DNA of 64,000 nucleotides from Psammoneis japonica (GCA_008632985.1 QPGO01000017.1:496001-560000), one strand, 5' to 3'; shown: positions 8,241 through 44,219, counted from the stretch's first letter. Program-made: numbers and translations. The notes: generated from the sequence alone by a model not told the origin.

Positions 8241-8344
8241 GATGTTCCGTAACAATGACAACTTCATTACATGATTGCTAAAAACAAAATAAGACTTTAA
8301 TTTTCTTCTTGTTCCAAACTCTTCCACACTCGAAAGCAACACCT

Positions 8345-13131: not shown

Positions 13132-16100
13132 CTTGTGTGCAGAGTAGAAAGCAGTGAGTGCCGTTGTCACGTGACTGTTATTGCACGCGAAAAATGTGGA
13201 GTTCGCATCCGTTCCTGATTCGTGACAACGCGGGGGAGTGGGCCGAATGCGTTTCGAAACTCCATGAAACTGATTGTTCAGCGACAAACGCTCTAGCTAG
13301 AGAACGGATACAATGCCTCAAGCTAAATGTTGATGATGTCCCATAAAACATAGCGTCGTCCTTCGTTCTGATTTCAAGATTGACGAAATGACCACTTGGT
13401 CGGACGGGTCGGCGGGAATCTTTTTCGCGCCTTTTTTTGACACACAAGCAAGAAAAAGGCGCGCCCATGATGAAAACCCGTGACACGGGCTTCATTCGAC
13501 GGGAGGAATGCCGTAAACAGGCGTCAGATGCCAGTTTCCCAACGTTTTTCTGGTAAAAAAAATTGTAGGAACTGTGTGCAATTTCAAAAAAAAAGAGATG
13601 AGGTTGGATCGAAAAATGTGCTACACTTCGAGCACGTGTTTCAGCTGAAAGCTGAAAGCCCCATCAATGCAATGGCATGCCACCAGATGAACGAGTGCCA
13701 TTGGATGCACCACTGCACAACACTTGTGTGCTGCAGTTTTACTCCAATTGCTGTGCACCACTTGTCTGGATTTGGATTGTTCACTGTGACCAGCGCAGCT
13801 CTTCTTGATGGCTGAAAAAGATGTGTTCGACCGATTCATTTGTCTCGCTCCAGACCGATTGGTGCTTTCCCTTCCCTGATGGTGGCTGGCCTTTTGCAAG
13901 ACAACATCACAATTTTAAATTCAAATTGTGCCATGTCAGAATTGTTGCAAAATTCAAAAATGCACAAGGCTCAAGAAGGCTCTTGCTTGCAGCCATGACA
14001 ACAGCGCACCTTGTTTTGCTCGGATGCCAGCTGCCTGCAGGCCTGTTCCAGCCCCAGGTGATCCGCAGTCCATCAAGCAAGATTTTCTGCACAGTTTTTT
14101 TCAGCACCAAAGAATTTTGTCTCTGCCCAGCAGAGCTTGCACTTTTTGGCTTTTGGCAATGATGATTTTTTTTTTTGATGGACCACACTTGTGATGACAG
14201 TGCATGTCTCCAACAACTGTGGCACACATTTCACCACAGGAAGAACAACATCAGTGTCAGTTTTCATTTGATGTTGTTCCAGCAATGCATTGATCAATGC
14301 CTTCATGCCATCCACATCAAAAACACCCAACACACAACATCAGCCACAATGCAGCACACCGCTGTTGCCGCTCCCCAGCTCCCTCCTCTTTGCCCTTGTG
14401 GTTGCATGGAACCGTCTGTTCCTTTCATTTGAAAGACATGCCATTGTTGCCACAGTGCAATTGCAGCTCCATGCAGTTGCTGTTGTCATGGGTGACACTG
14501 TCTTTTCACAATCTCTTTTTTGGAATTTGGCAAGTTGATTTTGCGTGTTGTTGTTCACGTGAGACACCGCGCTCATGATTTTTCTGGTTGATTCTCACGT
14601 CTCATTTTTTGTTTGTTTTGCAGAGCCAATGGTTTCCAAGTGACAGTTGCCACCATCTTGAACTTGTTTTTGCTTGTTTGCACTGTGATGTGTGCCATTT
14701 GGTGCTGTCAAGCATCTGGAGCTGCCTTGGCGGCTGCCTCTGTTTGTCCACATTGCTTTCATGGTGACTGACTTTGCCCCCTCTCTGGAGTGCATTTGCC
14801 ACACAAGTGGAAATGCAGCTTGTTGCTGTTTGGAGCTGCCAAGCATCTGGAACTGCCCAAGAGGCTGCCTCTGTTCATGCATCTGCATCACTTCTACAGC
14901 AACTGACATTGGCCCCCTCTCTGGAGTGCATTTGTCACGCAAACAGAAGGTTGGGGACAGTGCAATTGCAGTGGACAAGTCAGCCAAAGCAGCCACTGAG
15001 AAAGATCTGGGACTGGCAGATTCTTCTGTTGGTGGCAGTGCCCCTCAAGCAAACAACTCTTTAAGCCAGTTGAACATGTTCTTTTGCATCAAGAGTTTTG
15101 TTGACTCTCTGGAGGCACATTGCCCACTGGCATGTCATTCCAAAACTTGGTGCACTCAACCTGTCCAAGCTTTGTTTGATCCCCAGACATGCCCACAAGG
15201 TCTTGCAGATTTTTGTGCCTTTGCAAACATGGAAGATCACAAAACCCAGAAGGCCTGCCCTCACCTTCTTCATCACAGGAATGGCATCGATGGGCACAAC
15301 AGTGCCAAAACACGAGCCCTGTTCCACAACACTGTTGCCAACTGGTTTTGTCAAGAATTTGGCAGAGAAAATCTGCCACAAACAAAAGCATTTCTCAAGG
15401 AGAAGCACAACAACATGTTGATGTTGGTTGCAGTGCCATCAGGAATGCTGATCAGCAATGCCACAAAGGAGCACAGTGCTGCTGTTTTGATGTGCTGGGT
15501 CAACAAAGGAATCAGTGTGCTTGTTGATTAGCTGCATCCATGTGAAAGACTCTGAGGTTGTGAATGTTCAGATGGGTGATGAGAGAGGTGACAAGAGAGA
15601 GATGATTGCACAGCCCAACTGCAGTGTTTGTTCTCTTTTTGTTGGACTTGTTCAAGCCATTCCCTTTGCCTGTGACAAGAAGTGTGAGGCATGTCTGCAC
15701 TGTCAGAAGTTGATGATGCCTTGTTGCATGGGAGTGATGGGTTTTGAGGACATTGCAGATGAGAAGTCTGAACATTCAAACTTGGCAGAGGTTTGCAAGC
15801 ACTGGGAGTGGGACAAGCTCATGAAAAATTTCAGAGACCACACTGTTGTGCTGTGTGCAAGGAAGATGGTTGCTCCAATGAGCTCTGCACTTGTTTTGAC
15901 ATTGCCTTGTTCCAGCCCAGAGCATGTCCACCTTGCTGATGAGATGTGGTGCAAAGACAAAAAGCATTGGGAGGAACAACCTGATCATTCCAGGCCCTGC
16001 GAAGCACAAAAAATTTGCAATGACAGTGTGGTCAAAATTGATTGCCCAGAAAGGTGCAACCCTGAAATGTTGACCAAAGATCTAAAGAAGACTGCATGGC

Positions 16101-20680: not shown

Positions 20681-20840
20681 TTGCAGACTGCCGGCATCAG
20701 GGACAATCTAACAGACATCCAGGACAGATGACAATCATGCACCAGATGAGAAAGAAAGTGAGATCATTGGATCTCTCAATGCTGTCTGTGCCAGTCTGTC
20801 CAACACAGGGGAGTGTGCTCCCCATCTTGGATGTCTGTCA
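20681..20840 (-). repeat. 3' LTR of Copia #1
   Basis: Aligns with 27527-27696; adjacent polypurine tract on minus strand. Confidence 0.88.
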
Positions 20841-23800
20841 CCCTCCCCTGATGAGCAATGCAACAGTCATCAAGAAAGAAAGAAAACATCCAAAAAGAAA
20901 AAGGACCAGAACAGCAGAACAAAGTGAGGACCAAAAAAATGCCCAAGACTTGATCTGCAAACACAGCAACAATCAACAGCAGTGTCCCATCAAGCGGTGG
21001 GCATGGCGGGAATGAAACATCCAACCCACAGCCTTGGTCAGTGCATCGGCAGGGTCAATGACACCCGGAATGTGTCAAGTGACAATTTTGCCTGCCTCGC
21101 ACCAGTCTTGGATCACAAAATGTTGAGTGTCAATGTGGTGGGAATGCTCCACAGGCACCTTGTCATTGATCATCTGGGTGGCAGAAGAGCTGTCAATGTG
21201 CAAGGGAGTGGGACTGCATTGAGGAAAACCAAGCTCTTTGAGTGCCATCCTAAGATGCAAAGTTTGCTTGGCACCAGCAACAGCTGCAAGAAATTCAGCT
21301 TTTGCAGAACTGGTGGCTGCAATTGTCTGGGTTTGACAATGGCAATCAATCACAGCACCAGCAAGAACATGTGTGCATCCAGCAGCAGAACACTGGCACC
21401 AAAGTTCATTGGCATGGGCCACATCAACAAAGTCAAGAAGTTGGAAATGGCTGTCAGCACAAGGAAAATCAGGAAGAGTTGGATCTGATTCCAGCAACTC
21501 AAAAGTGCAAGGAGGAAGACCTGGATCACATTTTGTCTTCTTGTGTGTCAAGCCCCAATGCTTGGTGCAGTGCAAGCACTTGGCCATGCACTGGAGTGAA
21601 GTACAATGACTCTTATGGGGAGCCTTGGAAAACTTCAACAGAGTCACAACAAGACAGCCAACATCCAATCAACAACACGTGCAGGCAAAAATAAATTCAC
21701 CCAGAACAGACCAACAGGACAAGCCTTGAGATTCTGCCAGTGCGTCATGTTCTGGGGCACCTTCACTGGGGCCTTCAGCAGTGTGCAACTCTGCAATGCT
21801 TTCAACTGGAATGGGTGCAGCCTTGAAGTCACTGTCAGATTCATCAGCAGCAGGTGCATCCCATCCATGAGTTTTGAAGACTCAGTCTAAGTAACTCGCA
21901 CAGTTGATTGTGACAGAATCATCACTCTGGATCACATCAGTGCAATTGAACTCTACAACCAAGCCAAGGTGCTTGAAGGGGGGGGATTCCTCATTCTCCA
22001 TCTGAAGTTCCTTGCCAACATGATCATAGATTGCTTTGGCAATGTCCTCCAAAGGACAAGCAAGGGCAAAATCATTGACCTGATGGAGGAGCAGCACCTT
22101 GGCACCATTGCACGTGCCAGAGCAGATGCACTTGTCATGAGTGGCATTACGGAAAAGAAGCTTTGCATCCATTGGGATTGAATTGACGCACTTCTCCCAC
22201 AGGACGCCTGCTTCAGGATGACCTTGGGGAGCACACTTGAGAGGAAGAACACAGTGACGTGGGACCTTCTTCCCAAAGCGTTCCTCATGCCATGCAGCCC
22301 ATGCATCATCAACAGCAGCACAGACTGGTGTGCAGATGGACCAGGGGAGTGAGCATGGGCATCACGGGCATTGCCGCCAAAAATCCAACAGAACAAGGCA
22401 GCACCAAGTGCAAAAAACATCTTTTCAACAGACCGATCAACACAAGACAAGTGCGTGGAGGTCAGCTCATGTAAAGCCGGCAGAGCAGACTTGGGACCAT
22501 TTCAACACTGCCTTGAACGTCATTGACCATCAGGTTTCACCACACAATCCCAGTGCGGATGCACAACAGCAGCACCTGGAGGTTGTGGTTGCAGAGGACC
22601 ATGCATGCCAAGTGCAAAAAATTGATCTGGCTGTCGGTGTTCACCTTCTTCCCATTCATGCCATGCGCCCAATTTCCAAAGCTTGGATCAGGCAAGTTGA
22701 TCAAGAGCAGCTTCCTCAGGGGTGAGAGAGCAGGAGCCAATGGCATTGAGATGTGCATGAAAGACTTCCGTCGGGATGGACTCTTCCAAAAAATCACACA
22801 TCTTCAAGGGTGAGTTCTGGCACATGTGAATCATCCTCCATGGAATCAGGGTCAAATGGCTCCGCTTCCTCAAATGCTTCATTGAGAGTGTGTGAGTCCA
22901 AACGTCTTTCCAGAGCAAAGGCAATCTCAAAAGTTGATGTGTCATTGTGAAAGACATGTGACAGTGCAGCTTCAGCATCCTTTGGTGTAAACACCTCATG
23001 CTTGTTGATGGAGACAACACAGGCACCCACAAGCTTGTTGCGAGTGGCACAAAGTGAGGAGAACAAAGAAGCTGCAGGACCACGGTGCCTGATCTTGGAT
23101 GCACAGACGCAATCCATCAAAGCACACTGAGAGAAACCAAATCCACAAGCAGGTTCTGTGGGAGGATGTTTCATGGTGCAAGCAACAGTCTTGGCAAAAG
23201 GATTTGATGATGAGGTTAACATGGGAATGGTTGTTTCCTGTGTTTCAGCCAGAAGAAATGGCTGACCATTTTCCACTTGTTGCAAATGGGTGGCATTCGG
23301 AGGGAGTTGATCTGACAACAAGTCATTCATGCCCTCATCACACTGGATGTGCTTGGCTGTTTTTACTTTGTCAGTTGCAGGATCCCACCAAAGGACATTC
23401 TTCAAGGTGTTCGGCAGATGACCAAGGAATGCACCTTTCTTGGAGTTTGTCTTGAATGTGGTGGAGTGAGCAGAAGATTGCTTGGCCCATGCTTGGCATC
23501 CAAAAGTCTTGAGAGCAGCAAAGTCCTCAATCTTCCCAGCAGCAAGGGTGATGGGGGATGCATCTTGATCTTTTGCAGGAGCAGCATTCTTGATGCAGAG
23601 GCAATGGTAAAAAGCACAAGGCCAGAATCGAGTCGGGAGATTGGCGCAAATTAAAATTGCATGAATTGCGTTCTCAACAATCAAATGTGAGCGTTCCACA
23701 GGGCCACATTGGTTGGACGCACCAGCACCAGAAGGACACATGTCATGCTGGAATTCTTGGTCAAAGAGGTTGTGCACTTTGGGCTTTTTGTACAATTCTC

Positions 23801-26800
23801 CACCTTGATCCACAAATGCATGTTTGTCATGACAATTTGGCAAGTGTTGATCCAGGAATTGGCAAAGCCACTTGAGAGGACTGGCTTTGGAGACTCGTGC
23901 AACACCATGGAGCATGCGTGTTTTGTTGTCATGCACAGTGATCCAACACGTTTCACCATTAAAACCAAGACAGTCAGACTTGCGGTCATCGTTCTTGGAA
24001 GCCTGACCAGCAAAAGTAAAGTCCACAGCAAGGCCTTGGCATTGTTGGGTCACCTTTCAGGTCATGTCAGGTCCTGCAGGCATCTTGACTTGCTTGGCCT
24101 GAACACACGTTGGACAAACATCAAGGGCTGGGTTGGCATGCCTGAACTTGGGGACCCCTTTGACATGCTTGTGAGCATTGCACAAGCAATGATTGCTGGG
24201 ATGTCCAAGACGGTGGTGCCAGCGGAGGAGACATTCAGTCTCAACTTTGAGAGAGCAGACCAGAATGGGAGCAGGCAACAGCGGCAAGACTTGTGGGACA
24301 AAATTGAATTGCATGGAGAACAACTCAGCATCTGCCAAGAGAGGTTCTGTTGGAGCTTGTTGAACATTGATGCAGAAGACGGCACACAGGCATGCATCAT
24401 CAATGTTGTCAACTGAGGTTGAGCCAGGCATTGACGGTGCTTGACAGGTGGCAGTCTCAGACAGAGGAATTAGAGGAAGTGTAAAAACCTTTCCATGTCA
24501 GAGAATGACATGGACAACAACCTCTTGGGCATCAGTTGAAGCGGCACACATGCAAGCGCCATTGGCGTGGGTCTTCTTGAGGAGCTCGGAACAAATGGCC
24601 TGAGGCTTAAAACCAGAAGCCCATGCAAAATCGCGTTCATCAATCAAAGTGGACCTCAGACTTGGGTGGCAAAAGGCGCGCACAAGAAGAAAGCCATCAG
24701 CATTCTCTGCTGGTGCTTGCAAGCAACCACAGCCATGAGGAACCATGTCAGATCCTTCAGCAGGGAGCATCTTCAAAGGACAGGGATTGTCCGGTCCAAA
24801 TGGGGTGCAAGCATGAAGAAGGGTCTTGTCGCCTGCACAGGAGACCCAAGCACCAGTGTCAATTTGTGCACGGTGTGTCGTTGAGTCACGGAGAGCACAT
24901 GATTGACAGGGACAATGGGGGCACTCAAGGTTTCAAAGGTTGCAGGTGATTCCATGGGAGGAAAAATTGGAGAGATGCGCGCTGCACTCAATGGCAATGG
25001 GTGTTGACTGGTGGTCATGTCAAGGCACTCAAAGCCATGATCTTGATTGGTGGGCATGGGGACATTGGAGTCTTGTGCAGGGGATTCATGAAGAATGGGT
25101 TCCCTCCCCTGATTGATGCTGTCAGGGTCATCATCTGGAATCATCTGGACATCCAGAGTGCTGGCCTTCATCAAAGTTGAAAGAAGGTTTGCAAATGACA
25201 CATGTGAAAGAGGTTGTTCAGCGGAAGGCAACAAGTCAAGCAGATCCTCTTTCCTGGACACCCTGCTTGCATGGGTTGATTTTGGATTGGGGAGGGATGG
25301 GCGGCATTGTTTGTCCGAACGTGACAATGGCCCCAGGAAAAATCCTTCTTGGGCTTCTCAGACTTGAGTGCATCTTGAGCATGCTGATCACGTTGAAGGA
25401 ATTGGGAGAATCGGATGAGGTGGGTGCGTGGGCACTCAGCATCACTCAACACAGGGCACTCGTGGAATGAGTGACCATCACCACAGACGACACAAGGACA
25501 GGTCTGTGCTGTGGCAGGTGATGACTTAATCCTGTGGACACAAGCCTTGTAAATGCCATGCAATGCCTGCACTTCATCATCCGGAGGACCATCCACAGCA
25601 GCAAGTTCATTCACAAAGCACTCCACAGCATCCACGGGTGCTTCTGCAGGAGGGGGATTGGTTTCTGTCAGAGTCTCCTCTACAACTGAGGGTGGATCAG
25701 ATGGCTCATCTTCAGGTGGGAAGTCGAGACCTCGAACAGGAGCTGCAAGAGAAGGATTGGCCGGGTTCTGATTGTGGAGATGACGTGGAGGGTGCTTGGG
25801 AGCATTCTTGATGCAAAGAGCAGGACCATCCAGTTCCTTGAGGATTGTGCCAATGGTCTCAACAATCTTCTTCTGAGAGAACTTGTGTTGCTTGTTCTTG
25901 TCTTCTCAAGCATCCACTGTTTTACAGTGCAGACACTCTCCACAGCAGGCATTGCCAAGAAAAATGTCTGGCTCACCAGGGTCATCAAGAGAAGCATTGA
26001 CATTGGAGACAATCACCTGTGGCTGGAGGAAGTCCCTGAAGAGAGCACAGTGGCTAAGAATCGTGAGATTGTTTTGGTGTGGGCAGCTCTTGATCAATTC
26101 ACACTGACACTTTGTCCAAATTGGCAGGACATCAAAAAGGATCATCTTGATGGCAGCGCATCCATCTCCATGGCACTGGCAAACAATGTCAGGATGCTTG
26201 GAGTTGGCTGGAAAAATCCCAACCTTCTGGATGCACTGGAAGACAGTCAACTTCATCTGATCAAGTGGCACTCGCATCTGAAGTTGCAGGTCATCTGCAG
26301 GATCATTGCCACTTGTGAAGCCCCAATTTCCACCATCCTTGATAAAACACCATAGAGGGTGCATGTGTGTGCCACAAGCCGAGGCTTGTTGGGTTGCAGC
26401 AGCACACCATGCATGGATTCCTTGAGGAGAGATGTCATCACAAGTGAGGGAATCACAAAGAAAAGACTTGGGATCCCAGTCAGTGCAATGGATGAAGAGA
26501 GAACCATCAGTGAGCATGAGACGCTCTGCACCATCTTCGTGACAAAGATTTCCAGACTTGTGGGGTGCTGGTGACTTCCCCAACACTGCTTTGCCTGCAT
26601 CCTTGCATTGATGGCAAGCTGGCACATCCTTTGGAAGTCCTTTTGGATCAAAGGTGCACATGGCACTGGTTGCTGTCAAGGCAGAAGCCATGGCAGTGGC
26701 AGTCATGGCAGGAGACGGTGCAGAAGGAGCAGTCCTCGTCAATGCATTGGCCATGGCTTGCTCAAACTGTTTTGGACCAGGCAAATGAGCGGCCAAGGCT

Positions 26801-27526: not shown

Positions 27527-27696
27527 TTGCAAACTGCCGGCATCAGGGACAATCTAACAGACATCTAGGACAGATGACAATCATGTGCTAGATGAGAAAG
27601 AAAGTGAGCAAAAGAGAGATCATCAGATCTCTCAATGCTGTCTGTGCCAGTCTGTCCGACACAGGGGAGTGTGCTCCCCGTCTCGGATGTCTGCCA
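27527..27696 (-). repeat. 5' LTR of Copia #1
   Basis: Aligns with 20681-20840, with a 10-bp insertion. Confidence 0.88.
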
Positions 27697-29942: not shown

Positions 29943-32900
29943 ATGGTTCTCACTCGTCAGCAACAAACCGATGGTTTTGAGCACGTTGTTGGAACCGTGC
30001 TTGCCCAAGGTGCTGGAAGCCCTCTTCGTTTGGCTTTGACCCATGACGGCACGGACTCGCACCAAGAACTGTTCACGTTCATGCCGTCCCAAATCGACTC
30101 ACTTGAGTGCGACAACGGCACTGATGTGGTCCCTTTGCCACGCGGTTGTAAGAACATGTTAGCAGCTCTGGTCAGTCTGTACATTGTCAAAGCACACAAA
30201 GGTCTCGACGTTGCCAATGACTCCTCGTTGTTCGCGCATGAGGAGTTCCTTGCCTGCCGCCTCAGCCCTGACTGCATGTCTTCTGTGTCCGTCGGCAGCT
30301 CGCCCCTCGCACCTCCGCATGTCACCAACCCGACCAAGGCACGCGACCCTGTGCGAGACTTCAAGCGAGGCATCAAGCGTGACCCCACTGCTTTCACGGC
30401 TCTCAAATCCGACAAGCAGTGGCACACTTGGCACACCTCACTTGTGGCACAAGCCCATGCCCAAGACGTCGAGTGCGTTCTAGACTCGTCGTACAAACCG
30501 ACCAGCCCCGAAGACAAACTGCTCTTTGCTGAACAGCAAAAGTGCATGTTTGCCGTCTTCGAACGCATCCTTCTCACCGACAAGGGCAAAAACACCCAGA
30601 CCGTCTGCCGCGCCTTGTCCGAGCATGCGCTCGCCTCCACCCGCGCTTCCATCAAGTCCTCCACCTTGCTCACGCACCTTGCCACCGCATGTCTTGGTGA
30701 TGGCACTTGGAAAGGTCCGACCCACGGGTTCATCCTTCATTGGCAAGATCAGTTGCGCAAGCACGAGGCACTCATCCCGGCCAGTGACCACTTCTCTGAA
30801 GGGCAGAAGCGCGTCATGCTCGAGAATGCCATGCATCCTGTCGAGGAACTCCGCGCCGTCAAGAACCAAGCTGATCAGCATCGCACACAGAGTGGCAAGA
30901 GCCTCACATGTGATCAACATTGTGGCTTGCTCCTCTCCGCGGCGGCTCAATGTGACAGCACGTTTCAACCCAAGACGACACCTCGAGCTCCCCGACGTGC
31001 CACACACGCACACAACGTCCACTCCGAGGAACCATCCAATGATGTGTTCTACGACATCGACAGCAACATTGACGTCCTTCAGGCCAACGCTGCCTGCACC
31101 CGCGGTCCCAGCCTCACCGGTGACCAATGGAATCGTCTCCCTCCCGACCACCAATGGATTTGGGATTTGTTGCCCCATTCCTCCAAGGCGATCATCCTTG
31201 AGCATTCTCGTCCGCCTCCCTGCAACCCGCGTGCCAGCAACTGCCATGAGTCCGTTGCGGTCAACCTTCACGACCAACGACTTGGGAGTGACGGTGATGT
31301 CAACTTGTCCAACACGACTCCTGCTGACTTTGGTGACCCTGCTCCAAATGTGGGTGCCGCTTCAAACAATCCCATTCTGGCACACCTCACCAAGTGCAAG
31401 CCACTGCCACCCGGTGATCTGCAGCGCCTGTTGTCTCCCAACCAAGCCCCCAATGCCAGTCGACCAGGCCCATCCGCCGCTCCCTCTACCTCGCCTGCTC
31501 CCGCAGATGACATGGAACTCAACGGCCGCACTTGCCACCGCGTCAACAACCACAATGTCATTTGCTCTGCCTCCGCTCATCGCTCCACATGCACTGGTGC
31601 TCTAGTCGATCGTGGAGCCAACGGCAGCATTGCTGGCGACAACGTTCGCGTCATTGCACGCACCTCTTGCCAAGTCGACGTTCAGGGCATTGACGACCAT
31701 CAATTGGTGGACATCCCCATTGTCACCGCTGGCGCCATCATTGAGACACAGCGTGGTCCCGTCATTGCCATCCTCCATCAGTGCGCGCACACAGGAAAGG
31801 GCAAGACCATTCATTCCTGTGGCCAACTCGAATGGCACAAACATGATGTCAACGATCGATCTGTCAAGGTGCCCAATGGCTTGCAACGTGTCGCCACCCC
31901 TGATGGCTGTGTCACCCCAATTGACATCAAGGGCGGCCTGCCTCATGTTGCCATGTGTCCCCACACTGACGCCGAATGGGACACCCTGCCCCATGTCATC
32001 CTTGCCGGTGATGACACTTGGGATCCTTCCATCCTCGATCACTCTCTCACTGACAACAACCAGCGGCACGACACGATCTCTGACCTGCAGGACGATCCCA
32101 CTGCCAACCTGTTTGACGAATGCGGCAACTGCTGTCACCGTGTTGTTGTCAACAAGGCCATCATGTCCGCCTCCTTGTCTGCCGATCACGCGTCCGTCCT
32201 CGATGACTGCCTCATTCCGAATGACGACGTGTTCTACAAGTGTCATCCACATGCGATTGACCGCAAGGACGACGACACACCGCCCCGGAGCGCACTGTGC
32301 AGCCCAAGGACCCCCCCTGCGAGTCTCTTCGGCCTCACTTTGGTTTCCAACCTGCCGATGCAGTTCGTCGTACTTTCGACTGCACCGCGCAGTGCGCCCG
32401 CATGCCTGCTGGCACACACCTTGGGAAGGCCCACAAATCGCCCAACCCCGCCCTTAATGTGCACCGCCGCAACGAGCCTGTCGCCACTGACACCGTTCAT
32501 GCTGACACCCCGGCCATCGACTCTGGTTGCACCAGCGCCCAACTGTTTGTTGGCACCGAGTCTACCGTCACTGATGTCTGCGGCACCAAAACAGACAAAG
32601 AGTTTGTCAACACACTCAAGGATCAGATCCTTGAGTGTGGTGCTCCATCCAAACTCATTGGCGACTGTGCTCAAGTTGAGATCAGCAACAAGGTGCTCGG
32701 GATCCTGCGAGCCCTCTTTGTCTCCAGCTGGCAAAGTGAGCCTCACCAGCAACACCAAAACTTTGCCGAACGTCAACACCAGACCGTGAAGCGCATGGCG
32801 AACACAGTCATGGACCGTTTCGGTTTGCCCGCCCACACATGGCTGCTCGCGCTCATGTGCGTGTGTTTCATCCTCAACCATGCAGCCTCCCCACGTCTCC

Positions 32901-35520
32901 ACTGGCGCACGCCCCTCGAGACTCTCACTGGCTCCACCCCGGACATCAGCCCATTGCTCCGCTTTCACTGGTGGGAACCCGTGTGCTGCCACCTCGATGA
33001 CTCCGATTGGCTGTCCGAATCCCGTGAGTTGCGTGGACGCTTTGTTGGCATTGCTGAGCACGTCGGCCACCAGATGACCTTCAAGATTCTCTCTGACGAC
33101 ACTCAGAAGATCCTCTGCTGGTCCAACGTACGATCCGCTGCCACCAATCCTGCCGCTTGAAACCTGCGTCTTGATCCTCCTGATGGGGAGCCACCTGAAC
33201 CCATCATCAAATCTCGCCATGATGACAACCCCGTCGATTCACCCAATGGGGAGATCAGGACACCCAAGATGCCAGTTTTCGACCCGCCAGACATCATCGG
33301 ACGCACCTTCCTCATGCAGCCACAAGAGGACGGACAATGCCACAGAGCTCGCATCGTCAAGGCCGTTGAAGACCACAAATGGAAAGTGAACGGCAACCCC
33401 GAGCTCACTGAGTTCGTCTGCTCTGTCAACAACGACGAATGCGAGGAAGTCCTGGCATGCAACGGCATCATGAATCACATTGAGCAAGAAGACGAAGACA
33501 CTGCTGTTTGGAAATTTCGACGCATTGTGTCACACGAAGGACCTCTGAAGCCTCATGACCCAACCTGGAAAGGCTCAAGCTACAACATCATGCTTGAATG
33601 GGAAAGTGGGGAGATCACGTCCAAGCCTCTTGCCATCATCGCCAAGGACGACCCTGTCACCTGTGCCATCTGTGCACGAGAGAACGGACTTCTCGACACT
33701 GATGGCTGGAAGCGGTTCCACACCATCGCGAGACGCCAGAAGAAGCCATTTCGCATGGCCAACCAAGCCAAGCTTTGCTCCTTCCGCACTGCACCTCGCT
33801 GCAAGTGCGGATGCGAAGTCCCCCAGAACTGCAAACATGCCATGTCACTGGACGAACGCAACGGCAACCGCAAATGGGGAGACGCAACTAATCTTGAGAT
33901 GGACCAACTCGATGAGTGCAAAGTCTTTCATGACTGCGGGCCCTCCGAGTCTTCCACTCCTCCTGCGGGACACAAGAAGATCCGAGTGCACCTGGTGCAC
34001 GACGTGAAACACGACGGCCGCCACAAGGCCTGACTCTTAGCCGATGGGCACCTCACAGATGCACCCATCAACAGTGTCCACTCCAGAGCAGTCTCCCTCC
34101 GTGGCCTTCGGCTGATGATTTTCCTGGCCAAACTCAACGAGTTGGAGACATGGGCTGCCGACATTGGCAATGCCTGCCTTGAAGCCACCAACAAGGAGAA
34201 ACTGCACATCGTGGCTGGACCCGAATTTGGCAAACTCGAAGGCCACATTCTTGTCATCCACAAGGCCCTGTGTGGACTGCGCAGCTCCGGCCTCCGCTGG
34301 CACAAGCGCTTTGCCGACTGCCTGCGAGCTGAAGGTTTCTTCCCCTGTCACACCAAACCCGACATTTGGATGTGCAGGAACGGCGACCACTGCGAACACA
34401 TCGCCGTTCATGTGGATGACGACCTTGCCATTGCCATGAAGGACCCTCAATCTTTTGTCGACACTCTCACAGAAAAGTGCAAGTTCAAGCTCAAGGGTGC
34501 GGGACCGATTGAGTTCCATCTGGGCTGTGACTTTTCCCGGGATCCTGACGGCACCTTGTGCCTGTCCCCGCGCAAGTGCATTGAACGCATGGCCGACAGC
34601 TGCACATGACTTTTTGGGGAGAAACCTGCCACCAACATCCTGTCACCTCTGGAGAAGGGTGACCACCCCGAACTGGACACTTCCGAACTGCTTGGGCCCA
34701 ATGGCATTCAACAGTTCCAGTCTCTTGTTGGTTCACTCCAATGGGCAGTGTCCCTTGGTCTAGTTGACATTGCCATGGCCGTCATGTCACTCTCTAGTTT
34801 CTGAGCTGCGCCCCGTCAAGGCCACTTGGATCATGCCAAATGCGTCTGTGGGTGCCTCTCCAAGATGTGACACGGTGCTCTCCGCGTTCGCACGGAAGAG
34901 CCCGACCATTGGATCTCCCTGCTCCGGCCCATGAATGGATGCATTCCATGTGCGGTGAAGCAGAAGAGATGATCCCGAAGGACGCTCCACCGCCCCTTGG
35001 CAAGTTCGTCACTGCCACCCACTGCGTCGATGCAAACTTGTGCCATTGCATGCTCACCGGATGCTCTGTCATGGGAATGCTCCACTTCCTCAACAAATTC
35101 CTGGCTGATTGGTTCTCCAAGAAGCAAGCCACCGTGGAGACTGCGACCTGCGGGTCTGAATTTGTTGCCGCAAGGACTTGTGTCGAGCAGATTGTCGACC
35201 TGCGCATCACCCTGCGCCACCTCGGCGTCCCGATCCGTGACGTCAGTTGCATGTTTGGTGACAACAAGTCGGTTGTAGACAGTGCCACCATCCCGCACTC
35301 CAAGCCACACAAGCGACACACCGCACTGTCGTTCCACCGTGTGCGTGAGGCAATTGCCTCTGGTCACCTTGAGCTCCACTTCATCGAAGGCTCCCGCAAC
35401 CCTGCTGACATTCTCAGCAAGCATTGGGGTCACTCCCAAATCTGGGACCTTCTCCGCCCCCTCATGTTCTGGAACTTCATTCCATCCGAAGTCGAATCTG
35501 TTTCTGTGACTCCTCAAGCA
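29943..35520 (+). pseudogene. gag-pol polyprotein of Copia #2, disrupted
   Basis: ORF pieces 29934-32789, 32297-33160, 33269-34033, 34115-34609, 34840-35583; frameshifts plus TGA stops at inferred CGA(Arg) positions (34031, 34607, 34802); Tyr nearly absent. Confidence 0.92.
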
Positions 35521-35530
35521 AACTGGGGAG

Positions 35531-35806
35531 TGACAGGATTTGAACAGGATTTGGGTGCACGCGAAATGTCGCGCGCTGTTTAGCCCACTGCGCACAGTTT
35601 TGTGTGCTTCAGTTCCGCACGCTCGCACGCGATGTAGTTTGCTTTCGAGCCACAAGGCTCACAAGAATGACAACAGTGGCCCGATCACACCAACTTGCAC
35701 GTCTTTCAGCTCCTGTGACGGTCTCTGAGCGGAGACTCATCTGCTGTTTAGACAGCAGCAAGGAGTTGTTGTTTGAATTCTTGCCATTTGCCTTCAATTT
35801 CTGTCA
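35531..35806 (+). repeat. 3' LTR of Copia #2
   Basis: 276 bp, colinear with 28733-29008. Confidence 0.95.
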
Positions 35807-36307
35807 GAGAGGGGGGGCCTCCAGCATTCACATGGGATGTGTGTGAGGTGTGAGTGATGAGTGACGACATCATCAAACACAATGCCGCAGGTTCCCAATG
35901 GGGGAGGGCAGGGGCTGTGTTCATGTTCATGGGAAGATGCACATGTGTGGCATTAAAAGCAAGTGACGAATGTTGTGCTCAGTGCACAATGTCTCATGTT
36001 TGAGGATGCTTCTGCTGCTGTCAGCATTTGTTGATGTGATGAATTTAAAGTCAATGAAGACACAAATGACATCAATTTGTCAGGTGCAAAGCACAGCACA
36101 ACTGACAAATTTTCGCCAGGAGACGACTCCATCACAAAAATCGCAGAACCCAGCGTGTCTCATGCACGTTGTTCTTGTTCTCATCTTGCTCGGAATCGTT
36201 TCAAGAGCCACGAACTTCCAAATCAGACAACTGCTGTTAGCATCGTAGGCACCAACAGCAATGTGCCAGCGAGGAATGACAGAAGTGGCTGAGATTTTTG
36301 ACAGAAA

Positions 36308-39300
36308 ATGGTGGTGCTAAATTTGTTGGTGCAACCGAAACCAGGCTACACGCATCCAAAGAAACTCCAACGTATTCAAGTGGACACTTCAGAACGAGTC
36401 AAAGATGTTGTCTCTAAACTCAAGCTTGAAAAGAAAGGAACTCACTTTCATGCGAATGGAGGTGAACTTCCCTTGAATTCTTCGATTGCCTCTCACAATG
36501 TTCAAGATGGAAGTGTCCTCGAGACTTGCAACTGTCCAGTCTTGTTGGCTGTCTTACCATCGGTTCTAAAAGATTTCAACGAGGTAGAAAAACTGCCAAA
36601 ACTGACGATTGAGGAGAAGAGTCAGTTCGCCCGCTTTTGGATGATGCACTTTTGCATCCGTGGCCAAACAGATGGTCACCCAATGACATCAAGTCCCGGA
36701 TCATCTGTTTGGCAACCATCAAGAAAGTGATTCAACGCGATGGTCGATTTGAAGTGGAAGCAATTCCTCACTGTCAAGATCTGCATTCCCTCTCTGAGTT
36801 CATGAAAACTGCATGGAACCGTGTCAATGCTGCACCCACCAGTCCAGATGGAACTCCGAGATGCCGAGGTGGTCACAACACAATGGCACACATTGTCAAA
36901 CCAACTTCTCGAAACCGAAATGGACAGCCAACTGCTTGTTGGGAGTTGCTGCAAAACAAACTGGACAAATGCCATCTTGTGGCAAGTCAGCTTGGCCCCA
37001 ATGAGGATGCCATCGAAGAATTTCTCAAGCAGGATTCGGCTGGACATGGCACACCATCTGCTGCGTCTCAATCCCCTTCTAGAATGAGACGCACTGCCGG
37101 AGAAGTGGCAACGCCCAGTGCAATGCGGCCACGCCAAAAGCTGGCGATGGCTCCATCACCAGGGCGAAGGCAGTCGACATCTGTCCAGTGCATTGGGTGC
37201 ATCGCTCAAGCAGAGTGTGCATGTTTGGCAGGCTGCCCCTTTCACAAGCAATTTTGTTGTGCCATGTGCTTTGTTGGCAATCACCCTCCCTTCCAACGCA
37301 ATCACGAAAATGTCCCACTCACCGATCGGAGAGTCAAACCACTCTTGAAGGAACAAAATCGCAGACCCTGCATCCCAGATTGTGCCTCGGGGGCACTCTC
37401 CATTCTACAAATTTTGCACCAATGTTCGAATCGCATGGACACAAACTTGCGGGAGTGCAGTCTGGCAGAAAGTCATCTCAAAAAGCTTGCTCAAGAAAAG
37501 TGTCGATCAAATCTCTACGACAGTCAGGCCCGTGGACGAACCGCCTTTGCGTGCGTGGAATCTCTGACAGACAAAGGATTTCTCCGCAAAGAACTCATCC
37601 CTGGATCGCGTGAAGCCAAATTCAGTCTGCTGCCTCCAGGAGAAACCATGGGGAAACAATGCTGTGAATTCGACCAAGTGCCACAGCGCATGCTTTTTAC
37701 TCAACCAATGCAGACAGAAAGGAATCAAGTCTGCAGTGGCCAGCATCATGCAATTCGATTGATCATCGACAACCGTGAAGATGCCACAGACGAGGACGTT
37801 TGGACTCAATGCATGTGTTTGACTACAAATTTTTAAAATGATCAATGAGACGACACTCGAAATTTAAAAAAAATCTCTGTTCACATGAGAGACAAATTTT
37901 CAACATGCAGCAACTTAAATTTATAAATTTTTGTCATTGTGTGTGTTTGCAATCATTGTCTAAAATGTGTGTGCTGTTCACAGAGATGCAAAACCAACAG
38001 TGCCGTTTTACACAAACTGCAGAGTTGAAGGGACGAACACATTTTGAATGTGACAGTGTCCCTTGTGTTAAAATTTTAAATTTTTTTTGAAATGAAAGAG
38101 ACGACATTTGACCATCCTTCGCGATGAAGCAGACTCGTTTCGTCGCACACACTTTGTTTCTCATAAATTTCGTTGCACAACGAATCCCCTTTTTCTTTCT
38201 CACCACCTGCCGGTTGGTGGCACTCCTTTGTTCAAGGACTGAAAGCAAAGATGGTTAGAAAAGTCAAGGGCAATTTGGTGGTTGAGGCTGCAGTCGTTCT
38301 GAGTTCTTGCTTTCAGGTGAAATCCGTTGTTGAGTTGGTCGAAAACAAACATAAAACTGCACACGAATGTTGTTGCTGATTGAGCCACTGTCTTGCTGTT
38401 TGGTTGTAAGGTGTCCCAAATCTGATGTCTTCTTCTAAAGTTGTCCCAAGAGCTGCTGGCTTGGGCATTGGGCTGGCTTTGTCACTGCTTTGGTGGTTCA
38501 CAACTACAGTCACGCTGTGTTCTTGCCTTTGAGTGAGATCCGTTGTGAAAACTGGTTGGAAACAACTGCGGAACTTCAAAGATTTTAAGAAATGGGTGTG
38601 CATGGCATTCCATGGCACGGCGACGCTCCAAGGCCCCGATGGCCAGGTGAACAACAACCAGATTTAGTGTTTGAGAAACCGAAAGCACCCTTCAAGTTCA
38701 AACCAGAAAATGTGAAAAGATGTGGATTGCTTTCTAAAAAGTGGAAGACAGAATCTGTTGACAGATTGGAAGCATCGGAAGCTGGTGCTCATGTGTCATG
38801 GGACAGACACAGCAAACCGCACTGTCAAATTGCTCGTTGTGATCATGGGAAACTTGACAAACTGGCGAAAGAACAAGGTGTTCCTGCAAACAGAATGAAG
38901 GGAACGTACATTGACCCTGGCAAGTTTGCACACATTGACCATGAAAGTGATTTTTGGCAAGATTGTTTTGCACCTCATTTGTCCAAGTTGGATGTCAAGG
39001 GATTGGTTGATGACATGTTGAAGTCTCATTCGGAAGACACTGGTGACCGCCTCAGGGGCAATGTCACTGCAGGCGGTGGATGTGCTTCACAAAACATGCG
39101 GTTGGGTGAAGAAGGAGCAACAGAACCTCAAGTCACTAAGGGGCTTGGGAAAGAGCACGCAGAAACAATGTGTTGCATGTCTGACATGCTTTGTGATTGG
39201 GTCGAGACAAGAACATTTCAAGCGAACAACAAGAGTTGCCAGCTGGGGAATGTCTCTTTGTGATTCAAAATGAAAATGGTGAGGAAAAAGTGCCACCCAC

Positions 39301-42131
39301 AGTTGTGGAACGAAAGTCTTGGAGTGATTTGGCCGATTCGGTCAGTGATTGCGGGCGCAGAAAAAAGCGACTTGACTGCGTTCGCATCGGGGGAGAAAGT
39401 TCATGCGAAGGTGGTTGCCAACTCTGTCGAATGAAACACAGTGGATGCAAAAGAATTTTGTTTGTCATTGAGGGTGCGCGTTGTCTTCAACGTGACAACG
39501 ACCAAAAATGTGATGCTGTGGAGCGTTGCCAATGCTGCAAGGAACTGGCGCAGCATCATGGATCAGGACTCGTTCAAGAAACTCTCGAAGGCACGCTTCG
39601 AACCTTGCAAATCAATCACAACTGCTTGGTTTTGTTTGCAAGAGGATGCAATGAAACGATCGATGTGCTCTTCATCATGCGCGAAATGCTGGCCGCGTCA
39701 ACCGATCGAGAGCCTTCACTGTCCTGTGATCAATGTTGTGCGAATGCTCGACGGCGCATTGTTCCAGAAAGTGACCCCTGTCACCACCCGCCTCTCATGA
39801 GAGGAAAGCTTCAGATTCACCAAGCGGAGAGTTTCCTCAGAAGAATGTGCCTTGGTCAACTTCGTGAATTCCAAAATGCAATTCACCACAACACTGATTC
39901 TTTGCCAGCCCCCAATCACAGCATCAACGAGGAAATTATCGAGATTGATGAAGAAACGCCCCAGAAACGCCCAAGGACAAATTTGTCAAGTGCAAAATCT
40001 GTTCAAGAAGTCACACTCTGTGACGACACCTCAAGCAATGACAGTGAGAGCGTCGTGGATCTGTTGAACGACTCCCAGGATGAGATTGAACTTTTGGAAG
40101 ATGGCGGGTGGAGCAAAGCCAAAGCGGCAGTGAAGAATCCGCTACAGAGATTTCAGGAGTGACGCCAGCAAGGTCTGGAAAGCAGCGTGCCAAGATCTCT
40201 TAGAAGCAGAAAGTCAACAGTTTGAACAAAGTGTTGAGAAGTGGCTTGAACAGCTGGGTTGGCACGAAGATGACGAGTGCCCTGTTGTGCCCAGAAACAT
40301 GATTTTGTTTTGGTGTGTTCATTTGCAACTGAGTGGAAATGCCATTGTTCAAATGGTTCGAACCTCAGCAGAGCTGGAAAGTTTCTAGGCAAAGTGGGGG
40401 TGCGCATCCAATGATGCGCTGTCAACAACACCCAGAGTCACGCAACGAGTTGGGTTGCTGGAACAAAGGCCAAGCGCAGCGAATCCCCCAACGAATCGAA
40501 CACCTGCGGCTGCCGCAAGTGGACGCACAGGCATTGAATCACATGGAACAGCTCAACGCACTTCTGCAACTCCAGCTCGACAGGCTCTTGACTTCCAAGT
40601 GTCCCAGAGCTGCATGATCTGTGAAATGGAAATGAGGGGACACGATCAATTTGAGACATCCTGCCATCATGTCTTTCATCTAGAATGCACCGTGAGTTGG
40701 GTTGAGGGGACTGCTGCTCGAAAATGTCCTCGCTGCAGCGCTGATGGAATTGGTCTCCCCAAACGAGCAAGGCCACCTGCAGCATGCATGCAGACAAAAG
40801 GTCATTTTTGTCACGCCCTTTGTGACATTTAAAGGCTGCAACACGTCGCCGTGATGCATCAACTCTTGTCAGTGGCTGCACATTGCACTCCTCCCCATGT
40901 GTCACGCGTCCATGCGGCTCTTTACCAACGTGCACTGAAAAACGGTTTTGGCAGAACAGTGTGGGCATGTGCGAAGGAACACGCAGAACTGCACAGAGTT
41001 TTGCGCGTTCGACAGTGATCAACGTTGCTGCAGACAACTCCCACTCAGGGTTTCGAACCCCTGGCCTCCTGCCTGATGGTTGCGATGAACCACTCCGCTG
41101 TGAATTCACAATGCAGCATGCATGCAAACAAAAGGTTGTTTTTGTCACGCCCTTTGTGACATTTAAAGGCTGTAACACGTCGCCGTGGTGCATTGACTCT
41201 TGCCAGCAGCTGTGCATTGCACACCACAAATTCCCAGGGGACAAGGCCCAATTGGACAGAGATCGGCACTGGCACAGGCAACTCCTTCCAAAGCATCGAA
41301 GCCTTCCATTCCGTGCAGGGAGAACGACTGCGCTCAAGTGGCCCAAGAGGCCCGTCTTCATCGCTTTGAACAGTCTGGTGAGATGCGCTGCAATTCTGGA
41401 GCAGCAACGGATCGAACCAGTGGCTCGCCTCGACGTGCCTCGAAACGAACCTGGAAATGTCCAAAGCACACCTTCGAAAATGGCATCATCATGGACACAT
41501 GTGAAATGTGTGAACAGCCAAAGCCAAATGCCGCTGTTTGGAGATGCGAAGAGTGCACTTTTGAAAACCTTGCAAGCACCTCAAACTGCAGCATGTGCAC
41601 TGCTGTCAATCCATTCTTCATCTGCCCCGAAACGGTTGACTCTCAAACATCATTTGCCACAGTTCCAGTGGCGAGAGGTTTGAATGAAGATCCGGTTGCC
41701 TCCGATTGTGGAAGAAACATTGCCCCGACAGTGCCACCAGCAATCTCATCAGGTCAAGGTCCAATGCCTCTGAGGAAAGTTGCCTGTGGCGCGCGCAGAC
41801 GTCAGGGCCACAATCGAACATCGGCGACCGCCGAAAACTGCCCTGCATTCAATCTGCATTCAATCATCCTAGCGAAATTGCCAGGCACCAGCAAAAACGA
41901 GCTCAAGCAGAGGAGCAAGCCAGACAGAAATGTGCAGATGCAACCCGATTTGCCACCGAAACAAATGATGCCCTAGAACGAAACAATGCTCTTCAAATGG
42001 AAATGCAGCGAATGTTGCAGCATTCGATCAGGCAAGACGAAGAGCTCAAGAGGATGCAGGCGGAAGAAGTCAAACGAAAGCAGAAAGCCGCTGAACAAGC
42101 AGAAAAGCGCGCACGATGTCTTGCAGATTGA
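36308..42131 (+). pseudogene. MUS81-like (ERCC4/XPF family) structure-specific endonuclease pseudogene with extra domains, split by an insertion
   Basis: Ubiquitin-like N-terminus; Mus81 winged-helix-like segment (RPCIPDCASGALSILQIL..LAQEKC..TAFACVESLTDKGFL); RLIIDNRE; ERCC4 core ELPAGE..VVERKSWSDLADSVSDCG..FVIEG; RING (CMICE..CHHVFHLECTVSW..CPRC); two RanBP2 zinc fingers (WKCPKHTFEN..CEMC, WRCEECTFEN..CSMC); several frameshifts. Confidence 0.75.
37795..39200. mobile_element. Insertion interrupting the ERCC4 domain (probable transposon fragment with AT-rich end)
   Basis: Unrelated sequence between the DNRE motif (~37770) and ELPAGE (~39230); A/T-run-rich segment 37800-38200 and foreign ORF fragment 38592-39263; no TIR/TSD identified. 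Confidence 0.45.
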
Positions 42132-42149
42132 AGCCGCCCACTGGGGCCC

Positions 42150-43270: not shown

Positions 43271-43308
43271 TTGATTTTGGCCGCTGGGTGCTTCTGGACG
43301 TGTTTCGA

Positions 43309-44128
43309 GCCTCAGTTTTGACAGCGCACTTTGACTGTTGGGATGCCCAGCAAATGCCATTGTGATGACAATGCTGTCAAAGCAGCCACTTGAATGTAAG
43401 GCAAATCTTCCACTTTGCCATGGACAAGCTTCACATTGCCACAGCAAGTGCCACGTTGTTGAAGATTGCATCTTGCAATGGAAACAAGTTTCTCACTTCG
43501 CTTGACTCCACGTGTCTCATGTTTGTCAGCATGCTGTGCAAGAAGATCCCCATTCCAAACAACACCTCTAGAACAGGTGGACCTCCAATGGGCAGATTTT
43601 CATGCAGCCATCACAGGTTCCAGCAGTTTTTGTGTGTGTTGTGTTGAGCTGATCTGCAAAAGAGGCTTTGTCTGCTGGGCTCCTCGGAACAAACAATGTC
43701 GCTGCAAGATTCCTTGTTTCCCATCATGTGCTCTCTCTCTCTCTCTCTGGCTCTAGAGCTAGAGAGAGAGAGAGTGGAAAGTGGTGAGTGTTGTTGTCTC
43801 ACATTTGCTGCTTTCAGGCCAAGAATGTGGAGTTCGCATCTGCTCTCGATCAGTGACAACGCAGGGGGGTGAGGCGAGTTCGTTTCGAACTTCGTGAAAC
43901 TGATTGTTCAGTGAAAAATGCTTGAACTGATGCAATGCCTCAAGCTAAGTTTTGATGATGCCCCATAACATAGCGTCGTCCTCCATTCTGATTGACAAAA
44001 TGAAAATGAAATGACGCAACGGGAACTCCAAACTGGCGGATGAACTTGGTCGGACGGGTCGCAGGAAACTTTTTCGCGCCATTTCTGACACGAAAAAGGC
44101 GCGCATGACAACCCGTGACACGGGCTTC
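43309..44128 (-). pseudogene. Decayed direct duplicate of the methyltransferase 5' part and its upstream region (paralogous to 12681-13493)
   Basis: Colinear alignment by eye; translates to MGNKESCSDIVCSEEP and GCFDSIVITMAFAGHPNSQSALSKLR versus MGNKESRGDIVYSEEP and GYFDSVVITMAFTGYPDSQRAMSELR. Confidence 0.93.
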
Positions 44129-44219
44129 GCTTTTCGATCAACTTGAAACTCATCCCACAAAGAAAAAGAGAGAAAAGGAAAAAGATACACGAGATTCAAC
44201 AGCGTACAGTAGAACGAAA

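Follow-up and report, generated by a model that had tools for sequence, protein, structure and literature searches.

We analysed a stretch of 64,000 nucleotides from Psammoneis japonica (GCA_008632985.1 QPGO01000017.1:496001-560000), here called the window. Ordinary genes alternate in it with four blocks in which the dinucleotide TpA (TA) is almost absent, and the largest block holds two degenerate Copia retrotransposons, a nuclease gene and a fragment of a host gene. In all probability these blocks record a regional, post-insertion hypermutation that is specific for TpA and changes A:T to G:C, turning TA into TG or CA.

Composition was scanned in 1-kb windows and in 200-bp bins. The four TA-poor blocks lie at about 1950-5800, 8450-10350, 13650-43930 and 50450-58150, and their edges are abrupt at 200-bp resolution. 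Pooled, the blocks (43,734 bp) contain 197 TA, an observed/expected ratio (O/E) of 0.07, while TG stands at 1.73, CA at 1.66 and CG at 0.39. The gene DNA between the blocks (19,604 bp) contains 754 TA (O/E 0.57; TG 1.17, CA 1.16, CG 1.03). Hence there are 4.5 TA per kb within the blocks versus 38.5 per kb outside. In single 1-kb windows, block TA O/E is 0.02-0.19 and that of TG and CA 1.4-2.2; between the blocks TA O/E is 0.45-0.76. The loss of TpA is regionally restricted, and the remainder of the window is normal. CpG is depleted as well in three of the four blocks (CG O/E 0.04-0.35 in 1-kb windows), and it is near normal at 29-43 kb (0.6-0.9).

An initial annotation of this DNA had described a near-total loss of TA over a transposon-rich span, 13600-43935, with lost sites reappearing as TG or CA. 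Both statements hold, the second because TG and CA rise to an O/E of about 1.7 in the blocks and because the duplicated fragment described below shows the same replacement. Its counts by eye were also correct (13 TA in 13600-17600 and 19 in the gag-pol at 29943-35499; the whole span has 156). The span does carry the signature, but it is only the largest of four blocks, and three more lie outside it. The CpG depletion in three blocks is a further observation, absent from that annotation. The features of the window, with long terminal repeats (LTRs) and open reading frames (ORFs) where they were found, are:

1950..5800, no strand assigned: TA-poor, CpG-poor block 1 (unclassified degenerate DNA), 10 TA in 3.85 kb, CG O/E 0.07-0.24
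8157-8241: tRNA-Ser(AGA) gene, just outside the left edge of block 2, within about 200 bp
8450..10350, no strand assigned: TA-poor block 2, 3 TA in 1.9 kb
12678..13493, minus strand: unmutated copy of an 816-bp duplication, the 3' part and flank of an intact methyltransferase gene (12445-13296), with normal TA and CG density, just outside block 3
13650..43930, no strand assigned: TA-poor block 3, 155 TA in 30.3 kb, edges sharp at 200 bp
20681..27698, minus strand: degenerate Copia #1, LTRs 20681-20842 and 27527-27698, Pfam gag_pre-integrs (24060-24497) and SH3_retrovirus (within 22797-24056), tblastn match at 20988-21710
28730..35807, plus strand: Copia #2, LTRs 28730-29009 and 35528-35807, gag-pol 29943-35499, RVT_2 at 34034-34606
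36613..40159, plus strand: ERCC4-nuclease gene of cellular type in two ORFs, N-terminal 36613-37833 and ERCC4 domain 39197-40159 (Pfam ERCC4, E 8.5e-15)
40389..40829, plus strand: RING-finger ORF within block 3 (Pfam zf-RING_2 / zf-C3HC4, E about 1e-5)
43306..43940, minus strand: methyltransferase pseudogene fragment, the stretch of the second 816-bp duplication copy that is mutated, from the alignment to the gene copy
50450..58150, no strand assigned: TA-poor, CpG-poor block 4 with a satellite of about 190 bp at about 51476-54775

Both retrotransposons can be assigned to Copia by their LTR pairs, the domains RVT_2, gag_pre-integrs and SH3_retrovirus, and end-to-end alignment to polyproteins of 1379-1881 aa; the 1881-aa polyprotein P0124 aligns end to end with 29943-35499. 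The gag-pol of Copia #2 lies in three frames, with shifts near 32290 and 34910. Both elements are dead, with frame shifts and with the motif HVDD where YVDD is expected. Copia #2 belongs to a very abundant family: its summed word depth over 30-36 kb is 35,000-196,000, hundreds- to thousands-fold above the single-copy level, a measure that is not usable as a copy number. An origin of this high-copy element (28.7-35.8 kb) from ribosomal DNA was rejected, since Rfam gives one tRNA only in the window.

LTRs are identical at integration, and thus any difference between the two LTRs of an element reflects mutation after insertion. The LTRs of Copia #2 agree at 250 of 280 positions. The 30 differing positions comprise seven adjacent CA/TG doubles, six changes between CG and TG/CA, three between TA and TG/CA, three other transitions and two other doubles. 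Column shuffles yield a mean of 0.46 CA/TG doubles, and none of 10,000 shuffles reaches seven. A TG that faces a CA is the trace of two independent strikes on one ancestral TA, and TA is the likely ancestor at these sites because CpG is largely intact in Copia #2. If the TA that both LTRs still share are counted in, the element inserted with LTRs of normal TA density, no fewer than 13 per 280 bp. The LTRs of Copia #1 show the same pattern on a smaller scale (151 of 162 positions identical; two CA/TG doubles, two changes between TA and TG/CA, three between CG and TG/CA, and two other transitions).

Alternatively, the changes could have been made before integration, by ADAR-like A-to-I editing of RNA or by hypermutation at the stage of reverse transcription, and been fixed by reverse transcription. 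A>G change with a preference for a 5' U is the ADAR signature (discussed in 10.64898/2026.01.13.699255), and retrotransposon sequence makes up most of what can be recognised in the blocks. Nevertheless, the LTRs of Copia #2 came to differ by seven CA/TG doubles after they had been identical at integration. Satellite, DNA between elements, a gene at single-copy depth and the duplicate of a gene fragment are mutated too. Both strands are equally affected (56 TG versus 61 CA in a pair of related copies compared below), and the preferred 3' neighbour is a pyrimidine, not the G that ADAR favours. We therefore regard editing before integration as extremely improbable.

At the protein level the same change appears as a loss of tyrosine. 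We compared 493 sites that are conserved among five to eight full-length Copia relatives. None of the 28 conserved Tyr of the Copia #2 pol is kept: 19 read Cys (TGY), seven His (CAY), one Trp and one Phe. Gly (54/55), Ala (27/27), Trp (14/14) and His (17/17) are retained at these sites. Arg is kept at 27 of 37, with losses typical of CpG decay. The eight full-length relatives contain 3.5-5.3% Tyr and 0.7-1.8% Cys. Each of the seven peptide motifs that the initial annotation had quoted was located, at 33998-35319 on the plus strand. Copia #2 has a CG O/E of 0.8-0.9 despite a TA O/E of 0.06-0.11, and because it has lost TA yet kept CpG, the TpA process is much faster than CpG decay. As TAA and TAG stops disappear together with TA, numerous ORFs longer than 250 aa overlap at 29826-33238, in several frames of either strand, and the majority of these ORFs are spurious.

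The 816-bp duplication provides a natural experiment. The stretch at 12678-13493 has its second copy at 43306-44128, where it straddles the right edge of block 3, and we used the gene copy outside the block as a proxy for the ancestor. Inside the block the mutated copy retains one of 20 ancestral TA; ten have become TG, six CA, and three show another change. Eight of its 36 CG are kept, while 11 have become TG and ten CA. Past about 43940 the homology runs on to 44128, and there 2/2 TA and 10/13 CG are kept. Counted over both strands, A>G affects 17/38 adenines after T versus 27/266 after A, C or G (Fisher p = 9e-7; by context TA 17/38, AA 10/93, CA 12/91, GA 5/82). The four transitions occur in similar numbers (24/23/20/17), as C>T is increased by CpG decay. 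The latter is present as a second, separable process, which we recognise from sequence alone: C>T affects 21/70 cytosines before G versus 19/204 elsewhere (p = 1e-4). It leaves the loss of TA unexplained.

Block 3, all 30 kb of it, is bracketed by the two duplication copies, which are direct repeats. A local duplication may have been the place where the island grew, or the two may have arisen together. An inserted (CT/GA)n run, at about 43723-43780, is a further feature of the right copy.

What is struck does not coincide with what is repeated. The loss of TpA runs unbroken over different elements, the DNA between them and satellite. In the satellite of block 4, 14 aligned units contain 12 adjacent-column pairs that split into TG (at least two units) and CA (at least two units). 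The targets are mixed: besides Copia elements and satellite they include the ERCC4 gene, at single-copy depth, and the host-gene fragment. From 35.8 to 43.9 kb word depth is at the single-copy value of 63-70, apart from a short repeat at 40.2-41.4 kb. The ORF with the ERCC4 domain has no Tyr in 321 aa. Eight Tyr of its relative P0285 align to it and none is kept (five Cys, two Phe, one Thr); in the N-terminal ORF, Tyr has likewise given way to Cys or His and one Tyr is kept.

Finally, the loss of TA and the decay of CpG end at the same border, about 43940. A single-copy gene is struck, one copy of a duplication is spared, and the border lies within homology; hence targeting is by chromosomal domain and not by homology. 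The initial annotation had called the mutation repeat-targeted. This does not agree with a struck ERCC4 gene in 36-43.9 kb at single-copy depth, nor with a copy at 12678-13493 that is fully spared and a mutated zone that stops inside the homology of the other. We consider it likely that targeting follows a chromatin domain (heterochromatin or methylated DNA). The process would then follow the silenced, cytosine-methylated domain, and trapped genes would be collateral damage, much as fungal repeat-induced point mutation (RIP) leaks into neighbours. In a variant of this explanation the lesion may be made everywhere and repaired only in active chromatin.

Related Copia copies elsewhere show the process at different stages. 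A search of 1.84 billion representatives with the reverse transcriptase (RT) piece of Copia #2 gave 6784 relatives. Among the 150 best of these, P0131, P0176 and P0241 have no Tyr, and several further ones have 0.7-2% Tyr and 3.6-6% Cys. The Tyr-poor relatives come from metagenome assemblies of ENA and JGI. They differ in outcome from site to site: YVDD has become HVDD, CVDD or QVDD, and KALYGL has become KALCGL or KALHGL.

Scanning metagenome contigs with the RT of the window yielded 166 relatives, of which 80 loci were kept. Their TA O/E ranges from 1.15 down to 0.01 (33/80 below 0.5 and 5/80 below 0.2), and CA/TG climbs as TA drops. The intact relatives have a TA O/E of 0.9-1.15, 3.6% Tyr and the motif YVDD. 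Three intact-looking loci, L003, L004 and L005, are 99.6-99.8% identical to each other, with a TA O/E of 0.97, ORFs of 1895-1977 aa, 3.6% Tyr and YVDD; these features suggest elements that were active until recently and belong to the same broad lineage. Active members that natively encode Cys or His, which the initial annotation had named as an alternative, were thus not what we found, since the intact relatives carry Tyr and YVDD.

One metagenome family covers the whole range of TA O/E from 0.67 to 0.01 at 85-91% nucleotide identity. Its members L036 (0.67) and L079 (0.01) are identical at 2413 of 2769 positions. Of 128 TA in L036 none is kept in L079; 117 have become CA (61) or TG (56). Over both strands, A>G affects 124/255 adenines at TA versus 79/1210 elsewhere (p = 3e-54), with 21/382 in the AA context. 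The changes consist of 106 T>C, 101 A>G, 51 C>T, 40 G>A and 58 transversions. The control pair L035/L036, in which both copies are TA-rich, gives 19/218 versus 80/1109 (p = 0.48). In L079 A>G outside TA amounts to 6.5% where the loss of TA is complete, and the TpA process thus exceeds background change by a factor of tens or more. CG O/E is little changed between L036 and L035 on the one side and L078 and L079 on the other (0.75 versus 0.61) while TA O/E falls from 0.67 to 0.01, so the TpA process is largely independent of CpG decay in this family too. Aligned copies therefore give the spectrum that the initial annotation predicted, with A:T>G:C enriched at TpA both here and in the paralogue pair of the window.

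The loss is graded. Of 132 inferred ancestral TA sites, individual copies keep 107, 97, 70, 62, 61, 59, 56, 53, 51, 48, 43, 41, 26, 19, 10 and 2. Hence the loss is cumulative and not all-or-none. Runs tests revealed no clustering of kept versus lost TA (lowest p 0.032 in one of 15 copies, at least 0.26 in the rest) and none of TG versus CA outcomes (lowest p 0.085). Nothing points to a processive enzyme moving along one strand, and the two strands are struck without bias. Taken together, the change is post-insertion, at the level of DNA, on both strands, site by site and cumulative until TA is nearly gone. The proposal that genomic adenines in TA are mutated on both strands is supported by the paralogue pair, the LTR pairs and the graded copies of the related family.

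These data also bear on error-prone repair synthesis of the DNA polymerase eta type, recruited to heterochromatin, which the initial annotation had put forward as a candidate. This polymerase makes A>G errors at WA (W is A or T), with TA the best context. The regional limit could then reflect patch repair after deamination of 5-methylcytosine, as CpG decay shares the border at about 43940. However, AA is not raised, neither in the paralogue pair (10/93 versus 17/38 at TA) nor in L036/L079 (21/382 versus 124/255). Copia #2 lost TA but kept CpG, which speaks against a dependence on CpG repair, and mutated sites or strands do not cluster. The candidate fits poorly, and we consider it very unlikely.

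The adenine is struck preferentially when a pyrimidine follows, a context that we write T[A]Y. Relative to gene DNA of the window, TA survival in the blocks is lowest in ATAC (0.004), ATAT (0.017) and GTAC (0.037), and it ranges over 0.004-0.054 for ATAC, ATAT, ATAG, GTAC and ATAA. It is 0.12-0.30 for CTAC, GTAA, CTAG (0.28) and CTAA, and 0.69 for TTAA. T[A]Y is struck more often than T[A]R (R is a purine) in every one of the six copies that are partly mutated, with odds ratios of 2.4-4.9, although these copies share ancestry and are hence not independent. In L061, for example, 35/79 TAC and 33/78 TAT are lost versus 6/42 TAA and 7/56 TAG. The base at position -2 has no clear effect in the partly mutated copies. 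The preference explains why Tyr (TAY) has become Cys more often than His. On the opposite strand T[A]Y equals R[T]A.

Can the signature be an artefact of sequencing or base-calling at modified bases in heterochromatin? The initial annotation had itself named this possibility, and some long-read base-callers make systematic transition errors at methylated motifs. One sample (runs X1-X3), in the form of contigs assembled from exact 31-letter words, contains the stretch. Three contigs of 6965, 2683 and 1632 bp (word depth about 63-67) match 41166-48000, 35781-38462 and 39172-40803 with seven, seven and three differences. The signature is also found in the metagenome assemblies of other projects (5/80 loci with a TA O/E below 0.2, 33/80 below 0.5), and copies are graded, with outcomes that differ site by site. 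An artefact has next to no chance of being the explanation. A stably modified base that is read as G, such as inosine left in DNA, was likewise rejected: the strands would disagree in reads, yet the exact-word contigs agree at full depth.

Several points weigh against our interpretation. Word contigs of about 65x reproduce the window, but the sample is probably the one from which the window itself was derived; it tests base calls and is no separate isolate. The metagenome Copia loci are environmental contigs without an assigned host. "Single copy" here means that no other copy exists at 90% likeness or more. We see only the accumulated footprint and no ongoing rate. By sequence alone, deamination of adenine is indistinguishable from a lesion on the paired thymine. 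Finally, the 40 best-supported differences between Copia #2 of the window and other copies (276 further rows not included) are mostly sites with CpG elsewhere and TG or CA here, and about three are at TA-derived sites. Much of the TA loss of Copia #2 may thus be shared between copies, or it may be convergent via the T[A]Y bias.

The last point would fit a TA-poor founder, that is, families that evolved or were selected to avoid TA and experienced no hypermutation. In this case one would not expect a catalytic YVDD to read HVDD, nor all 28 conserved Tyr to be gone. The LTRs bore at least 13 TA per 280 bp when they inserted, the duplicated gene fragment lost its TA only within the block, and relatives at 85-91% nucleotide identity span a TA O/E of 0.67-0.01. 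Native TA poverty is hardly credible as an explanation. GC-biased gene conversion was rejected as well, because the excess is TA-specific.

The flanking genes are ordinary ones: RPC5, a nucleotide-sugar transporter, tRNA-Ser, a 2-oxoglutarate (2OG)-Fe(II) oxygenase and the methyltransferase. The 120 best relatives of the transporter are 52-76% identical, and all those with an organism name are diatoms (Asterionellopsis, Attheya, Nitzschia, Fistulifera, Cylindrotheca and others). Judged by this one gene, the window is DNA of a diatom or of something closely related. tRNA genes are heterochromatin barriers in some organisms. In TA-bearing DNA just downstream of the oxygenase ORF, at 12211-12324, a 57-bp unit is tandemly duplicated with 96% identity.

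Pfam was run on 217 of the 327 stop-to-stop ORFs listed from the blocks, in batches of 150 and 67, the second batch being the longer ones. There were few matches, because the elements are too degraded, and blocks 1, 2 and 4 as well as 13.6-20.6 kb gained no element class; for block 1, none of the 36 ORFs tested within it or at its edge matched. The ERCC4-domain nuclease appears to be an unusually rare family, as only two detectable relatives of similar length, P0285 and P0286, exist among 5.8 billion clustered proteins. A sequence search of the PDB with the ERCC4 ORF gave no match. The two ORFs of the gene are separated by about 1.36 kb, a gap that may be an intron, an insertion or decay. The short repeat inside this otherwise single-copy stretch, at 40217-41418, has a summed word depth of 7,500-56,000. 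It contains direct repeats of 114 bp at 40778-40891 and 41112-41225 that are 89% identical.

To explain the footprint, we propose that the blocks are silenced domains, with dead Copia retrotransposons, satellite and the DNA trapped between them. The A:T of TpA in them is converted to G:C, and mutation stops at sharp borders of the domain and not at the ends of repeats. In the chemistry that we favour, adenine would be deaminated to hypoxanthine, which would be read as G at replication, and the enzyme might be a TadA/ADAT-like or another deaminase; a deaminase of this kind, already suggested in the initial annotation, is still a reasonable candidate. From the sequence pattern, we give adenine deamination about an even chance. 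TadA edits the U33-A34-C35 loop, whose 5' T and 3' C match T[A]C; the substrate of bacterial TadA is UAC.

Alternatively, the same regional hypermutation could start on the thymine. A dioxygenase of the TET/JBP type would oxidise T in R[T]A of silenced DNA to 5-hydroxymethyluracil (5hmU) or 5-formyluracil, which would mispair with G and lead to T>C. 5-Formyluracil is known to mispair with G, and dinoflagellate 5hmU favours TpA. The same A:T pair changes in both cases, so every sequence result fits equally well as R[T]A. In dinoflagellates, thymine hydroxylases of the TET/JBP type mark repeats and silence transposons, as reported in PMC11572971. On the other hand, 5hmU as such normally reads as T. 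Next to block 3 there is a 2OG-Fe(II) oxygenase gene (10866-12116); its Pfam match is of the prolyl-hydroxylase type (2OG-FeII_Oxy_3) and not Tet_JBP, and its position is probably a coincidence. We consider a primary thymine lesion unlikely, though clearly worth keeping in mind beside adenine deamination.

Whichever base is attacked first, the consequences for the affected DNA are the same. Tyr codons become Cys or His, and signals of the TATA and AATAAA type are erased. Almost no new stops arise, so dead elements retain long open frames. This is a hazard for gene calling, as TA-free DNA keeps long spurious ORFs in which TGA is the only stop left. Dates from LTR divergence are inflated by TpA mutation, and the changes from Tyr to Cys or His can mislead the annotation of transposons and trapped genes.

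Directed hypermutation of mobile DNA is known as C>T change, in RIP and by APOBEC. The initial annotation held that RIP, CpG decay and one-strand editing at the RNA or reverse-transcription stage fail to explain the pattern, and our comparison bears this out. RIP in ascomycetes resembles what we see in that dinucleotide-specific transitions kill transposons on both strands, spill into single-copy neighbours and form distinct blocks. However, RIP turns C into T at CpA and thereby generates TpA, whereas here TpA is destroyed and CpA/TpG are created; in the paralogue pair C>T at CA (7/91) is not above CC (4/51) or CT (8/62). Duplication is what sets off RIP, and both copies are then mutated, whereas here the left copy of the 816-bp duplication is unmutated and the border lies inside homology. 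RIP also comes in bursts, whereas here copies are graded.

Deamination of 5-methylcytosine, or CpG decay, equally yields TG and CA, occurs in the same blocks and shares the border at about 43940 (21 of 36 CG have become TG or CA in the pseudogene copy). In contrast, it acts on CG and not on TA, and it is much slower here. ADAR hyper-editing and APOBEC are similar as context-dependent transitions of the deaminase type that disable mobile elements. They act on RNA or single-stranded intermediates, on one strand and before integration, and APOBEC causes C>T; the changes described here are post-integration, strand-symmetric and extend beyond retroelements. TadA, ADAT2-ADAT3 and the adenine base editors derived from TadA deaminate A after U or T (U33-A34), as our preferred chemistry would require, but the natural substrates of these enzymes are tRNA loops. 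We know of no natural DNA adenine deaminase that has been identified as acting on chromatin domains.

The closest system is that of the chlorarachniophyte Bigelowiella natans, and the earlier statement that no such system had been described must be revised. In mutation-accumulation lines, according to the main text of a 2026 preprint (Mettrop et al., bioRxiv 10.64898/2026.01.13.699255), an integrated giant virus and a virophage acquired 231 mutations, of which 230 were A>G/T>C, all at TpA, with TpA mutation rates about 1000-fold over background. The same text reports 124 TpA-poor, CpA+TpG-rich clusters in the genome and an enrichment of reverse-transcriptase and DDE domains in TpA-poor genes, and the authors point to an ADAT2 homologue as candidate deaminase. 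In the literature that we searched on hypermutation of TpA to TpG/CpA, this preprint was the only report and none concerned diatoms; most subscription journals were outside the search, so an earlier report is possible.

As far as the preprint's main text goes, the two systems are alike in that changes are confined to TpA and give TpG or CpA by strand, are regional and directed towards GC, and leave a TpA-poor footprint rich in CpA and TpG. By this analogy, the process in our window would be the same in kind. The differences are several. The host there is a chlorarachniophyte, here a diatom-like stramenopile. Targets there are an integrated giant virus and a virophage, here LTR retrotransposons, satellite and a trapped gene of cellular type. 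TA O/E is near saturation here (0.07), compared to 0.45 for their region of nucleocytoplasmic large DNA virus (NCLDV). The mutations there are de novo, whereas here there is an accumulated footprint alone. The T[A]Y preference and the co-bounded CpG decay seen here do not appear in the main text of the preprint.

Tentatively, and with somewhat less conviction than for the chemistry, we suggest that diatoms and chlorarachniophytes, possibly lineages of the stramenopile-alveolate-rhizarian (SAR) group widely, might share an enzymatic defence guided by heterochromatin. A DNA adenine deaminase or thymine-modifying enzyme acting at T[A]Y / R[T]A would progressively erase TpA from silenced transposons, satellites and integrated viruses. 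If true, this would mirror fungal RIP on A:T pairs and amount to a natural "adenine base editor" on chromatin, with a footprint that is common in environmental algal DNA. That a diatom-like genome carries the TpA signature at saturation, and that numerous environmental Copia copies carry it as well, would show that it is no curiosity of one species. It would tie the TpA process to silenced, transposon-rich domains, beyond integrated viruses. The T[A]Y preference is a constraint that any candidate enzyme must meet, and transformable diatoms offer a route through comparative genomics and genetics to this enzyme, possibly an editor of adenine in DNA that nature already provides. Compared with the systems above, what is new here is the host lineage, the main targets, the saturation, the border shared with CpG decay, the T[A]Y preference and the breadth of the signature in environmental DNA.

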